DNA of 18,772 nt from a virus (lineage: Duplodnaviria > Heunggongvirae > Uroviricota > Caudoviricetes), in IMG/VR virus record IMGVR_UViG_2718218139_000014, one strand, 5' to 3'. Below, one piece after another: positions 3,024-8,337 of this stretch. The notes below the pieces were generated by a model. That model made no database searches. It was not told where the DNA came from and was given only the letters and a program-made list of their open reading frames with translations. Position 1 is the stretch's first letter. Each line of letters starts with the position of its first letter. The position numbers and the translations under genes were made by a program.

Positions 3024-4061
3024 TTAACGCTTATCCGCCACCAGTTTGAGCGCGTGTTCCAGCACATTAATGTCTGCACCCGCTTTATGGGCATTTTCAC
3101 TTAAATAACGCCGCCACTGCCGCGCGCCAGGAATACCCTGGAACAAGCCCAACATATGCCGGGTAATATGGCCGAGATACGTCCCCTGGCTGAGTTCACG
3201 CTCAATGTACGGATACATGGCGCGCACTACCGCCACCGGATCGGCATCGGTATCCGAGGAACCAAAGATCTCCCGGTCTACCGCCGCCAGAATACCCGGA
3301 TTCTGATACGCCTCGCGCCCGACCATCACGCCATCCATATGTTGCAGGTGTGCTTTGGCCTCTTCCAGCGACTTGATACCACCGTTAATCGACATTGTCA
3401 GATGCGGAAAGTCACGCTTCAGTTGATACACACGCGGATAATCGAGCGGCGGGATTTCACGGTTTTCTTTCGGGCTTAACCCCGAAAGCCAGGCTTTACG
3501 TGCGTGGATGATGAACATCTCACACTCGCCTTTGCCGGAAACGGTATTGATGAAATCGCAGAGAAATTCATAGCTGTCCTGGTCGTCGATGCCAATACGC
3601 GTTTTCACCGTCACCGGAATCGACACCACATCGCGCATCGCTTTCACGCAGTCGGCAACCAGCTGCGCATTACCCATCAGACACGCACCAAACATGCCGT
3701 TCTGCACCCGGTCAGACGGGCAGCCGACATTCAGGTTGATCTCATCATATCCGCGCGCTTCTGCCAGCTTTGCACACTGCGCCAGCGCCGCCGGATCGCT
3801 ACCGCCCAGTTGCAACGCTACCGGATGTTCTTCTTCACTGTACGCCAGATAATCACCTTTACCGTGAATAATCGCCCCTGTGGTCACCATTTCGGTATAA
3901 AGCAACGTATTGCGGGAAAGCAGACGCAAGAAATAGCGGCAATGTCTGTCCGTCCAGTCGAGCATAGGAGCAATGCTAAACCGAGAACTCCAGTAAGCGC
4001 CAGTTTTTTCAGGCATCACGCTGGTTTGATTAGTTTTCTGTGTTTCAGGATTATCGTGCAT
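3024..4061 (-). CDS. dusA: tRNA-dihydrouridine synthase A (TIM-barrel flavoprotein), 345 aa with longest start
   Basis: Translation contains conserved Dus motifs ([22 protein letters not shown], catalytic Cys region); an alternative start at MPEKTG (4016) is possible; the extreme 5' end lies next to the integrase and may be element-derived. Confidence 0.92.
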
Positions 4062-4094
4062 TTTTGAACATTTCAGGCTATTTTTCTCGCGTTA

Positions 4095-4129
4095 GGTTCC
4101 CGCACAGGTTCCCACGTTTTATGGGAACC
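4095..4129. repeat. Cluster of GGTTCCC motifs (two direct, one inverted) in the dusA-integrase intergenic region
   Basis: GGTTCCCGCACA-GGTTCCCACG direct repeats followed by the palindrome GGTTCCCA-cgtttta-TGGGAACC; lies between divergent dusA and int starts; candidate integrase/operator or att-arm sites. Confidence 0.4.
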
Positions 4130-5017
4130 CGAAATAACGAGGTCGTGTAATGGCGTACTATAACATAGAGAAACGACTAAAATCCGATGGCACACCACGC
4201 TATCGCTGTAATGTGATTATCAAAGAAAAAGGTGTTATCACTTACAGAGAAAGCAAAACATTCCCTAAACATGCTCATGCCAAAACATGGGGCGCACAGA
4301 AAGTGATGGAATTAGATCTATATGGCATTCCATCATCAAATGCTGTTGATGGACTTACAGTCCGTGACTTACTACACAAATATTTAAATGACCCAAATGC
4401 CGGAGGTAAAGCAGGCCGTACTAAAAGATATGTGCTGGAACTGCTTATGGATAGTGACATATCCGCGATCAAACTATCTGAACTGACAGAAAATGACGTA
4501 ATTGAACATTGCAGGCTAAGAAACAACGCTGGTGCAGGCCCAGCAACAGTCAGCCACGATGTTAGTTATCTTGGCAGTGTTCTGGATGCGGCAAAACCTG
4601 TATACGGAATCAATTACACATCAAACCCGGCGAAAAGCGCTCGTCCATATCTACTTAAACTCGGTTTGATTGGTAAATCAAACCGTCGTAATCGTAGACC
4701 AGCATCTGATGAACTTGACATGCTCATTGAAGGCCTTCAACAACGATCTACTCATAAATGCTCAAAAATTCCGTTCGTTGATATCCTCAAATTTTCTGTG
4801 TGGTCCTGTATGCGAATCGGAGAAGTATGCCGGTTACGATGGGAAGATCTCGACCAAGAACAAAAATCTATACTAGTAAGAGATAGGAAAGATCCACGTA
4901 AAAAGGAAGGTAACCATATGAAAGTTGCCTTGCTTGGGGAAGCCTGGGATATCTGAGGTAGCCTGAGTTTAACGGACACTCCTTCCTGAAATAGAATGGC
5001 ATCAGAAGGAGCTAATA

Positions 5018-5320
5018 ATGAGCAGAAAAACCCAACGTTACTCTAAAGAGTTCAAAGCCGAAGCTGTCAGAACGGTTCTTGAAAATCAACTTTCGATCAG
5101 TGAAGGCGCTTCCCGATTATCTCTTCCTGAAGGCACTTTAGGACAATGGGTTACCGCCGCCAGAAAAGGGCTCGGTACTCCTGGTTCCCGCACGGTGGCT
5201 GAACTGGAATCTGAAATTCTGCAACTGCGTAAGGCGTTAAATGAAGCTCGCCTTGAGCGAGATATATTAAAAAAAGCAACAGCGTATTTTGCACAGGAGT
5301 CGCTGAAAAATACGCGTTAA
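5018..5320 (+). CDS. IS3-family transposase OrfA (HTH DNA-binding), 100 aa
   Basis: [20 protein letters not shown]... with leucine-zipper-like C-terminus; AGGAG RBS upstream; contains the A AAA AAA slippery site at 5269-5275. Confidence 0.9.
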   Translation: MSRKTQRYSKEFKAEAVRTVLENQLSISEGASRLSLPEGTLGQWVTAARKGLGTPGSRTVAELESEILQLRKALNEARLERDILKKATAYFAQESLKNTR

Positions 5321-5355
5321 TCGAACAATGGCGACAACAATTTCCCATTGAAGCG

Positions 5356-6174
5356 ATGTGTCAGGTATTTGGTGTATCCAGGAGCGGTTATTACAACTGG
5401 GTACAGCATGAACCCTCAGACAGAAAACAAAGTGATGAGCGGCTAAAACTGGAGATTAAGGTGGCACATATCCGCACTCGCGAAACATATGGAACCCGGC
5501 GGCTCCAGACGGAGCTGGCAGAGAATGGCATCATCGTTGGTCGTGACCGACTGGCACGTCTTCGTAAGGAGCTAAGGCTACGCTGTAAGCAGAAACGCAA
5601 GTTCAGAGCGACTACGAACTCGAACCACAATCTGCCAGTTGCGCCAAATCTGCTGAACCAGACGTTCGCTCCTACAGCACCAAATCAGGTCTGGGTGGCG
5701 GACCTGACGTATGTTGCCACACAGGAGGGATGGTTGTACCTCGCTGGCATCAAAGATGTTTATACGTGCGAAATTGTCGGCTACGCCATGGGAGAGCGCA
5801 TGACAAAAGAGCTGACAGGTAAAGCCCTGTTTATGGCGCTCAGGAGCCAGCGCCCACCTGCCGGGCTAATCCACCACTCTGATCGAGGTTCACAGTACTG
5901 CGCATACGATTACCGGGTCATACAGGAGCAGTTTGGTCTGAAAACATCAATGTCGCGTAAAGGTAACTGTTACGACAACGCTCCGATGGAAAGCTTCTGG
6001 GGAACGCTGAAAAATGAGAGCCTGAGCCACTATCGTTTTAATAACCGGGATGAAGCCATCTCAGTAATACGGGAATACATTGAGATTTTCTACAATCGTC
6101 AGCGTCGTCACTCTCGTCTGGGGAATATCTCCCCGGCAGCCTTCAGGGAAAAATATCATCAGATGGCTGCTTAA
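5356..6174 (+). CDS. IS3-family transposase OrfB (DDE catalytic domain), 272 aa; expressed as OrfAB fusion by -1 frameshift
   Basis: ORF in -1 frame relative to OrfA, open from the slippery site; contains DDE-type motifs ([16 protein letters not shown], ...[14 protein letters not shown]). Confidence 0.9.
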   Translation: MCQVFGVSRSGYYNWVQHEPSDRKQSDERLKLEIKVAHIRTRETYGTRRLQTELAENGIIVGRDRLARLRKELRLRCKQKRKFRATTNSNHNLPVAPNLLNQTFAPTAPNQVWVADLTYVATQEGWLYLAGIKDVYTCEIVGYAMGERMTKELTGKALFMALRSQRPPAGLIHHSDRGSQYCAYDYRVIQEQFGLKTSMSRKGNCYDNAPMESFWGTLKNESLSHYRFNNRDEAISVIREYIEIFYNRQRRHSRLGNISPAAFREKYHQMAA

Positions 6175-6516
6175 AAAAAGAACAAATGGTAGTGTCCGCT
6201 ATTGCCAGTACACCTCAATCGTCCAGCGACAACCAAAAAAATCAGAATTCATTTTTCCATATAACAGCACTTCTGTTACCGCAGGATTTCAGAGGGTAAG
6301 AAGCAAATTAGGTATTAAAGATCTGCGATATCATGATTTGCGTAGAGAAGGGGCAAGTCGCTTATTTGAGGCTGGTTTTAGTATTGAGGAAGTCGCTCAA
6401 GTTACAGGGCATCGTTCATTAAACGTGCTATGGCAGGTATATACCGAACTGTATCCGAAATCTTTACATAATCGTTTTGAAGAACTCCAAAAGAGCAGAA
6501 ACAAGACCTCTTGACA

Positions 6517-6560
6517 CTGTTTATTTATACAGATAAAAATAACACTGTATACAAACACAG
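6517..6560 (+). promoter_or_regulatory. Two tandem LexA (SOS) boxes overlapping a candidate promoter of the DinI-like gene
   Basis: CTGT-N8-ACAG at 6517-6532 (CTGTTTATTTATACAG) and 6545-6560 (CTGTATACAAACACAG); TTGACA at 6511-6516 and TAAAAT at 6535-6540 fit a sigma-70 promoter with 18-nt spacer. Confidence 0.6.
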
Positions 6561-6575
6561 TATAGAGGGATTTTT

Positions 6576-6824
6576 ATGCGTATTGAAATCTGCATAGCCA
6601 AAGAGAAAATGACTAAAATGCCAAACGGTGCTGTGGATGCGTTAAAGGAAGAATTAACTCGGCGCATCAGTAAGCGTTATGACGATGTAGAAGTGATCGT
6701 AAAAGCCACCAGCAATGATGGGCTTTCTGTTACACGCACTGCAGATAAGGATTCTGCAAAAACATTTGTTCAGGAGACTCTGAAAGATACCTGGGAATCT
6801 TCTGACGAGTGGTTTGTTCACTAA
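6576..6824 (+). CDS. DinI-family (DNA-damage-inducible protein I-like) protein, 82 aa
   Basis: [11 protein letters not shown]...[11 protein letters not shown] parallels E. coli DinI (MRIEVTIAK...ETWESADDWFV) from memory; AGAGGGA RBS 5 nt upstream; LexA boxes upstream. Confidence 0.85.
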
Positions 6825-6984: not shown

Positions 6985-7626
6985 TTAATTTTTTAAAACG
7001 AAGTTACCTCTGTCAAGGTCAAAAGCACAATTATCTCTTCCTACAATCATTGAAACTGCGATTGACTCCCTGCTCAAAGGATGAGCCGCCCTTGTTTTAA
7101 CAAGATGTATTAATGCCATTTTATCATACAACATACAAACATTTGAATTCATTGAATTCCTCATAAATACCCCATCTTCTGGTTCACATAATGTAACAGG
7201 GCATGTTCGTAAGCTCTCTGGCACTTGCAATTGTGCACGCTCCACATTAAATGCACATACTTCAATTTTATCTAACAACTCCTCTAACTGGTAGTTAGAA
7301 AGCAAATCCATATTTTCGAGCATCTCAATTTCACGCAGTACTGTAACTTCACGGCTTGTCAAACTACCATGATTAAGTGTACGTTCAATATGTTCTATAT
7401 ATTGAAGGCCAATCTGGATATTATCATTCGATAAACCATCCTGGTTAAGACTTCCCATAAAATATCCATTTACCTGCATAGGTCGTATTGACACCATCAA
7501 CTCACCCAGTCTTATTTGAGCTTCTCCACGAATAGTCTGATTACGTATCTCAGACAGGGTTTCTTGAGGAATGTCAGACAAAAAACTAACCCCAGGTAAA
7601 ATATAAGGCGTTAAATCTACAGGCAT
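6985..7626 (-). CDS. nleG: NleG-family type III secretion effector (U-box E3 ubiquitin ligase, DUF1076), paralogue C, 213 aa
   Basis: C-terminal motif TCPVTLCEPEDGVFMRNS...AAHPLSRESIAVSMIV...RGNFVLKN shared with the two neighbouring paralogues; GGAGGGAGAGGA RBS; AT-rich gene and flanks. Confidence 0.78.
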   Translation of the reverse strand: MPVDLTPYILPGVSFLSDIPQETLSEIRNQTIRGEAQIRLGELMVSIRPMQVNGYFMGSLNQDGLSNDNIQIGLQYIEHIERTLNHGSLTSREVTVLREIEMLENMDLLSNYQLEELLDKIEVCAFNVERAQLQVPESLRTCPVTLCEPEDGVFMRNSMNSNVCMLYDKMALIHLVKTRAAHPLSRESIAVSMIVGRDNCAFDLDRGNFVLKN

Positions 7627-7707: not shown

Positions 7708-8337
7708 TCACTTACAACAAAAAGCTTCTCTTTTTGTATCAAAGTGACATTCGTCTTTTCTCATAATCATTGATTCTGTTATAGGTTCTCGACTCAGAGG
7801 ATGAGCTCCACCAGTTTCAACAAGTTGCACTAACGCGTCCTTATCATATAGAGAGCATATCTCAGCACCTTGTGAGTTTCTCATGAACACTCCATTCTCA
7901 GGTTTGTCCAGCGTTATCGGGCATGTCAAAAATGACTCCGGGCAAGAAAAGTGATTAGAATCCGTTCCAAATACACAAGAATTTATTTTTTCCATTAATA
8001 TTTTATTACCTGTTTTATTTTCTCTGTGTTCTGCCATGACACTCTGAAAATAGTTATTAACACTACTTAAAAAATCGACACCTCCATTTAATTGCCTTTC
8101 CAGAGCCACAGCCCTTCTATCCATTCGATGCTCACGCCCCAATAGCCTATCCAGTAAGCCTCCTCTCACCGGTTCAACTGAAAATCCATCCAGTAGTTGG
8201 ACATAGTGAACAGAATATTGGCCACTACCAATGGATATTCTTATTCCACTTTCAAGTCTGGCAGCATCCTGCAAAGACTGTACTCCTGCAGGAGATAATT
8301 GAGATATACTTGGGATACTTAAGGTGGTAACAGGCAT
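7708..8337 (-). CDS. nleG: NleG-family type III secretion effector (U-box E3 ubiquitin ligase), paralogue B, 209 aa
   Basis: C-terminal motif FLTCPITLDKPENGVFMRNS...GAHPLSREPITESMIM; divergent N-terminal half; AT-rich upstream region. Confidence 0.8.
   Translation of the reverse strand: MPVTTLSIPSISQLSPAGVQSLQDAARLESGIRISIGSGQYSVHYVQLLDGFSVEPVRGGLLDRLLGREHRMDRRAVALERQLNGGVDFLSSVNNYFQSVMAEHRENKTGNKILMEKINSCVFGTDSNHFSCPESFLTCPITLDKPENGVFMRNSQGAEICSLYDKDALVQLVETGGAHPLSREPITESMIMRKDECHFDTKREAFCCK

Follow-up and report, generated by a model that had tools for sequence, protein, structure and literature searches.

IS600 splits the dusA-associated integrase gene of a lambdoid prophage remnant that has probably lost the ability to excise

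We analysed a stretch of 18,772 nucleotides from IMG/VR virus record IMGVR_UViG_2718218139_000014 (hereafter the window), in which a tyrosine recombinase gene (int) lies beside dusA, is divergent from it, and is split by a 1264-bp insertion sequence (IS). The results pointed to a lambdoid prophage remnant integrated at dusA, whose int was split by IS600 and whose excision would have been lost in consequence, and we assign a probability of about 85% to this account as a whole. The anatomy of the locus, the precise empty site, the family membership of the integrase and both attachment sites were observed directly, and the remnant is probably immobilised, that is, no longer able to excise. The coordinates of all features are collected in Table 1.

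IS600 separates the catalytic residues of the integrase

An earlier note on this DNA, made from the letters alone, had described an integrase gene that starts 88 bp from dusA and diverges from it, and the gap between the two starts was indeed exactly 88 nt. As it stands in the genome, the truncated integrase open reading frame (ORF) ends right after Ile268, with the first triplet of the IS (TGA, 4954-4956) as its stop. When the IS and one of the two ATC repeats beside it were removed, joining 4150-4953 to 6221-6514, an ORF of 1098 nt (365 aa) was obtained, which was the same as the uninterrupted E. coli 2013C-4830 gene (L001:15151-16248) except for a single synonymous base. The reconstructed protein was identical over 365 aa to WP_000332258.1, the intact integrase of that strain. 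The frame is therefore restored exactly across the insertion, as had been claimed, with the correction that the join belongs at 6221, since a join at 6218 would duplicate Ile268.

The reconstructed protein matched Pfam Phage_integrase (PF00589; E=1.1e-20). A search of NCBIfam returned only sub-threshold matches to Xer and integron-integrase models, and that database therefore holds no specific model for the dusA-associated integrases (DAIs). In an alignment with 12 homologues (58-82% identical to the query), the residues R222, H306, R309, H332 and Y342 were invariant. The R-H-R-H tetrad and the nucleophilic tyrosine of tyrosine recombinases are thus complete in the reconstructed protein and split by the IS in the actual genome, where the insertion after codon 268 leaves R222 upstream and H306, R309, H332 and Y342 downstream. 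This is the placement that had been proposed, between box I and the HxxR/Tyr region. A different departure from the common allele was seen in an E. coli protein of 392 aa (P0001), in which 27 residues form an internal tandem duplication (ELLMDSDISAIKLSELTENDVIEHCRL repeated).

The inserted element had been called IS600-like. It has the 1264 bp proposed for it and aligned to the annotated IS600 of O121 RM8352 ('IS3-like element IS600 family transposase') with 1 mismatch in 1265 aligned nt (99.92%), which identifies it as IS600 itself and not merely as a relative. Its terminal inverted repeats are imperfect (27 nt, 70% complementary, with TGAGGT...ACCTCA ends), and orfB scored 334.7 bits against the NCBIfam model transpos_IS3 (cutoff 160; E=7e-100). 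A programmed frameshift, annotated as such in the RefSeq copy of IS600, is predicted here from the A7G slippery site. IS3-family elements move by a copy-out/paste-in route.

The perfect ATC repeat reported to flank the IS was found on both sides of it (4951-4953 and 6218-6220). An accidental 3-bp repeat has a chance of 1/64 taken alone; far stronger evidence for a simple insertion comes from the empty-site comparison with 2013C-4830, because removal of the IS restores the intact allele and an identical 365-aa protein, and on this ground the clean, simple transposition envisaged earlier is upheld. The insertion resembles lacZ::IS600 of STEC (E. coli that produces Shiga toxin) O121:H19 (PMC9397093), in which a 3-nt IS600 target sequence was also used: the two share a 1264-bp IS600 with orfA/orfB, the A7G site, TG...CA ends and a 3-nt duplication, and in both a gene was inactivated through simple insertion in an IS600-rich genome of the STEC type. 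They differ in that a metabolic gene was hit there and a prophage integrase here, and IEE reversion is documented for the lacZ allele.

The interrupted gene belongs to the dusA-associated integrases

The reconstructed protein was identical at 364/365 positions to the integrase lying within the island coordinates given for EC4115 (O157:H7) in Table S1 of Farrugia et al. 2015 (PMC4482086), where the dusA element of EC4115 is listed as a 10,855-bp 'phage remnant'. The integrases of three temperate lambdoid phages, mEp460, phiSTEC1575-Stx2k and the Stx2 phage 1720a-02 (KF030445.1), were 98.1-99.7% identical to it, with a value of 99.2% for 1720a-02 Int. An independent test drew on 80 loci of related integrases in other species, 75 of which had sufficient upstream sequence. 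A dusA homologue lay on the opposite strand in 55 of the 75, at a start-to-start distance of 68-104 nt (median 88 nt). The remaining 20 relatives, mostly from Xenorhabdus, Serratia, Providencia and Raoultella, were found at other sites, in agreement with the non-cognate targets reported for DAIs (PMC4482086). The near-identity to the EC4115 integrase and the divergent dusA at these foreign loci support the assignment of the interrupted gene to the DAI family, as the earlier note had supposed. The conserved spacing between dusA and the integrase gene suggests constrained functions in the short gap, for which promoters or arm sites of Int are candidates; a promoter and terminator scan of 3900-6700 gave nothing above shuffled expectation.

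The element shares with the EC4115 dusA remnant (PMC4482086) an int that adjoins dusA and diverges from it, a dusA 5' end supplied by the element, 21-bp attL and attR sites, and the order of its genes, which runs from int and dinI through three nleG, tail fibre and lom to a fragment of the tail-tip protein gene J (J'), a truncated DUF2303 gene (DUF2303'), and yfdR ... prtN at the far end. Unlike the element analysed here, the EC4115 remnant has an int that is not split by IS600 and carries no IS600 at J'/DUF2303'. The phages mEp460, phiSTEC1575-Stx2k and 1720a-02 have near-identical integrases, and phage 1720a-02 further resembles the element in its dusA site, in its phage-borne dusA 5' end and in the need of Int for attP (PMC6328086). 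All three are complete and can be induced, with sizes of 43-47 kb, whereas the window holds a ~15-kb remnant with an interrupted int and no head, lysis or regulatory genes. All components of the present case have already been described, namely the DAI family, E. coli dusA remnants, IS600, and gene inactivation via IS insertion.

The element supplies the start of dusA and is bounded by attL and attR

The comparison of the dusA 5' end with that of an uninterrupted E. coli dusA (K-12), which had been put forward as a way to locate attL, revealed that this end is not K-12 sequence and placed attL within the gene. The dusA of the window is a hybrid, with a chromosomal 3' portion and a 5' portion from the element. 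Within its first 96 nt there were 18 differences to K-12 (81% identity), by which 10 of residues 1-32 are changed with the reading frame maintained, and from the core ATGCTCGA (3958-3965) onward 73/74 nt were identical. Judged by this pattern, the element brings a replacement dusA 5' end, and hence dusA stays intact, as is usual for the DAI family.

A search for attR inside the window was negative. The site was located 194 nt past the window end, in the source contig PVMG01000001.1 (GCA_003015325.1), which is identical to the window at 15,257/15,257 overlapping bases. The displaced dusA 5' fragment at attR equals K-12 at 115/115 nt up to the core, after which phage DNA follows. attL and attR match at 16/21 positions, and the 8-bp core is common to attL, attR and attB; the attB given for C. 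rodentium in the study of phage 1720a-02 (PMC6328086) is the same dusA site as the attL found here. Two marks of DAI elements were accordingly present, since semi-conserved 21-bp direct repeats (attL/attR) flank the element and the dusA 5' end is altered by it with the frame kept. The distance from attL to attR is ~15.0 kb, of which the window spans the left 14.8 kb.

Excision of the remnant is probably lost

According to the proposed account, a lambdoid prophage would have entered the dusA 5' end through its DAI tyrosine integrase, and the dusA start would have been replaced by the element's own version, keeping dusA whole. A later transposition of IS600 (IS3 family) at codon 268/269 of int would then have created the 3-bp ATC duplication. 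The predicted 268-aa truncated product would keep the N-terminal DNA-binding part and R222 and lack H306, R309, H332 and the nucleophile Y342; it would be unable to catalyse strand exchange, and the remnant would be unable to excise.

We infer the loss of excision because deletion of int from phage 1720a-02, whose integrase is 99.2% identical, abolishes detectable attP (PMC6328086), and because the att sites and the prtN-like ORF are intact here. With attL, attR and the prtN-like ORF intact, no lesion other than the IS can be seen in the excision machinery, and no further integrase gene is present within the element. Circular excision that restores wild-type dusA has been described for dusA islands of Acinetobacter and Pseudomonas (PMC4482086), and excision with restored dusA was likewise demonstrated for phage 1720a-02 (PMC6328086). 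For the element in the window, this route is expected to be lost.

Several points weigh against this account. The genes between J' and DUF2303' had already been lost, so the IS is not what ended phage life. IEE promotes IS600 excision in STEC and restores lacZ in O121:H19 (PMC9397093), and IEE-driven removal of IS600 may make the block reversible. If the genome encodes a further DAI-type integrase at another locus, that enzyme could work in trans; up to 6 integrase-matching places were found in some E. coli genomes. Moreover, excision loss in this strain is inferred, and the role of the prtN-like gene as directionality factor is assumed.

The lost genes raise the possibility that the IS insertion had no functional effect, in that the remnant was already fixed and inert and the insertion was a neutral step of prophage decay. 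This is conceivable, although we consider it rather unlikely. It agrees with the loss of everything between J' and DUF2303', including the head, lysis and regulatory genes, with the O157:H7 relatives of the remnant, which are equally reduced yet have an intact int, and with the other decay alleles of int that are known, such as a frameshifted 281-aa product. However, the excision module besides int looks intact (attL, attR and the prtN-like ORF), and the remnant before the insertion was probably still excisable and losable. As for the sequence of events, the IS copies, being identical, give no indication whether the deletion or the int insertion came first.

A reversible block, in which IEE-promoted excision of IS600 restores int and provides a low-frequency on/off switch of mobility, appears improbable. 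Both IS600 copies of the window have intact transposase frames and slippery sites, the lineage is IS600-rich (25-29 matching places in the closest genomes), and the position of the second copy beside a deletion without a duplication fits IEE-type or recombinational activity. Yet no IS-cured sibling of the exact lineage was identified, strains with the empty site could simply never have carried the insertion, and no sign of selection for reversion was seen. Still more doubtful is the specific form of this idea in which int::IS600 acts as a reversible lock in an IEE-positive STEC, precise excision regenerates the DAI, and the nleG-bearing remnant then leaves dusA; if true, the IS would be no dead end but a stochastic switch that governs how stably an element with effector genes is kept.

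A loss of excision, the reading that we prefer, would explain why the dusA remnant of this lineage, which carries three nleG and provides the dusA 5' end, is probably a fixed part of the chromosome. It would be one further case of IS600-driven prophage decay in STEC-type genomes, which is routine and has little meaning beyond strain-level annotation.

A second IS600 copy marks an internal deletion

The second IS600 copy is base-for-base the same as the first and inverted relative to it. It lacks a target duplication and links the C-terminal J' fragment to the truncated DUF2303 gene, which is without ~29 N-terminal residues at this junction. The window is collinear with the prophage of 2013C-4830, which has a full tail module at the same site, as far as 12277, inside J. 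Because the two flanks of copy 2 differ (CTG and TGG), we read this copy as the mark of a large internal prophage deletion by which the head, lysis and regulatory regions are gone. Recombination between two IS copies and an IS-adjacent deletion are the alternatives proposed for its origin.

The identical inverted pair (4954-6217 and 12278-13541) brackets 6.06 kb including the three nleG, and might be taken for a composite transposon that brought the int 3' end, dinI, nleG and the tail genes. This origin was rejected as very improbable: the outer flanks, ATC (4951-4953) and TGG (13542-13544), are unlike, the inner flank of copy 1 resumes the integrase frame exactly, and the bracketed DNA forms a single collinear block with the intact 2013C-4830 prophage. 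An inversion between the two copies was likewise rejected, with copy 1 retaining both ATC repeats and the int halves being collinear. A 1275-nt inverted repeat, extending 11 nt beyond the IS, was considered as a shared flank and discarded, as only 7/11 of these positions match (CAGATACAGCG vs ATCGTCCAGCG), a chance extension.

The O157:H7-type remnant (L003 11215-11228) has an IS-free J'/DUF2303' junction, and its deletion is nested around the IS600 of the window (12116-13861), so that O157 lacks 162 nt of J and 320 nt of DUF2303 that the element here retains. This nested deletion would fit an event of the kind described for IEE, in which an IS is lost along with flanking sequence. Common ancestry is unproven because one stretch of J' has diverged considerably (78% identity over 218 aligned nt, window 11900-12115, against 92% for the wider J' flank).

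The insertion is rare and probably recent

A screen of 5426 complete E. coli genomes found the integrase gene at >=80% coverage in 728, and neither the int::IS600 junction nor the J'::IS600 junction in any of the 5426. The int::IS600 junction was present in two NCBI assemblies, GCA_003015325.1 and GCA_002486255.1, and in the closest genomes the site is empty (99.9% identity). The event is real and, because the junction is rare and the two IS copies are identical, int::IS600 is probably recent and lineage-specific, and its junction is usable as a lineage-specific marker. An assembly artefact from a collapsed or misplaced repeat could be suspected, as IS600 occurs in multiple copies and the identical pair here is separated by 6 kb, but is hardly credible given the perfect 3-bp duplication, the exact frame restored by IS removal and the identical junction in two independent NCBI assemblies, one with the locus on a 5.2-Mb contig.

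Several further candidates for the junction were set aside. Three short Logan contigs matching the 268-aa fragment were not counted: two of them read ...ATCGT, the intact allele at a contig end, and the third ends exactly at ATC and is uninformative. A 281-aa protein (P0119) was rejected as an IS junction, being a frameshifted allele. A contig from Logan ERR11457806 (L007) matches the window in pspG, dusA and the 5' part of int and stops exactly at the ATC insertion site; upstream of its qorA, genes for an enoyl-CoA hydratase, a sugar transporter and an FAD-binding protein replace dnaB.

IS600 was also seen elsewhere in the same prophage. In O121 RM8352 (L002 16940-18206) and O121:H19 strains it lies downstream of dinI, adjoining nleG7, and int is intact. 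With this different position in O121:H19, the region has been struck by IS600 independently in different lineages.

Gene content of the prophage remnant

The element was termed an island in the earlier note. Its integration at dusA holds, but its gene content is that of a lambdoid prophage of the mEp460 / 1720a-02 type reduced to a remnant of ~15 kb, heavily deleted, decayed and dead as a phage. From the dusA side, int::IS600 is followed by dinI, a capsid gene fragment, three nleG, tail fibre genes, lom, the J' fragment and the second IS600, and then by DUF2303', early genes, genes of the PrtN family and for a yafO-like toxin, and an ORF of 179 aa. Table S1 of Farrugia 2015 (PMC4482086) names prtN for the dusA elements of E. 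coli.

Table 1. Features of the dusA locus and the prophage remnant (window positions unless stated otherwise)
Feature	Position	Strand	Evidence or remark
dusA (345 aa)	3024-4061	-	ORF; Pfam Dus E=7.8e-105
attL 21-mer CCTATGCTCGACTGGACGGAC	3948-3968	-	8-bp perfect core ATGCTCGA at 3958-3965
Element-derived dusA start, 96 nt	3966-4061	-	Comparison with K-12
Divergent intergenic region dusA/int	4062-4149	.	Exactly 88 nt
Integrase 5' fragment, codons 1-268, with R222	4150-4953	+	ATG at 4150
ATC target-site duplication, left copy	4951-4953	.	
IS600 copy 1, 1264 bp	4954-6217	+	Left inverted repeat 4954-4980, right inverted repeat 6191-6217
IS600 orfA	5018-5320	+	HTH_Tnp_1 E=1.5e-20
A7G slippery site	5269-5276		orfA/orfB overlap region
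IS600 orfB	5356-6174	+	HTH_21 and rve (E=3e-26)
ATC target-site duplication, right copy	6218-6220	.	
Integrase 3' fragment, codons 269-365 and stop; H306, R309, H332, Y342	6221-6514	+	
DinI-like prophage gene	6576-6824	+	Pfam DinI E=1.6e-18
Three tandem nleG type III effector genes	6985-7626, 7708-8337, 8410-8997	-	Pfam T3SS_NleG E=1e-43 to 1e-47
Tail fibre, Lom, tail-tip protein J C-terminal fragment	9375-12277	-	J' ends at 12277
IS600 copy 2	12278-13541	-	Flanks CTG (12275-12277) and TGG (13542-13544)
DUF2303 gene without N-terminus	13542-14280	+	Prophage early region begins; Pfam DUF2303 profile positions 26-269 of 269
PrtN-family gene (PF11112), candidate excision directionality factor	17483-17755	+	ORF intact; L014 13968-14240 (+3515)
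YafO-toxin-family gene (144 aa)	17782-18216	-	attR end of element
179-aa ORF upstream of the yafO-like gene	18233-18772	-	No Pfam match
attR CCAATGCTCGATAGGATGTAC	L014 15451-15471, outside window		Intact in source genome

The three nleG sit between the inverted IS600 copies, and homologous recombination of the copies would flip this 6-kb block. At the other end of the remnant, the pair formed by the yafO-like gene and the 179-aa ORF is widespread at this place in E. coli dusA prophages, with 13,697 blocks of the collection listed.

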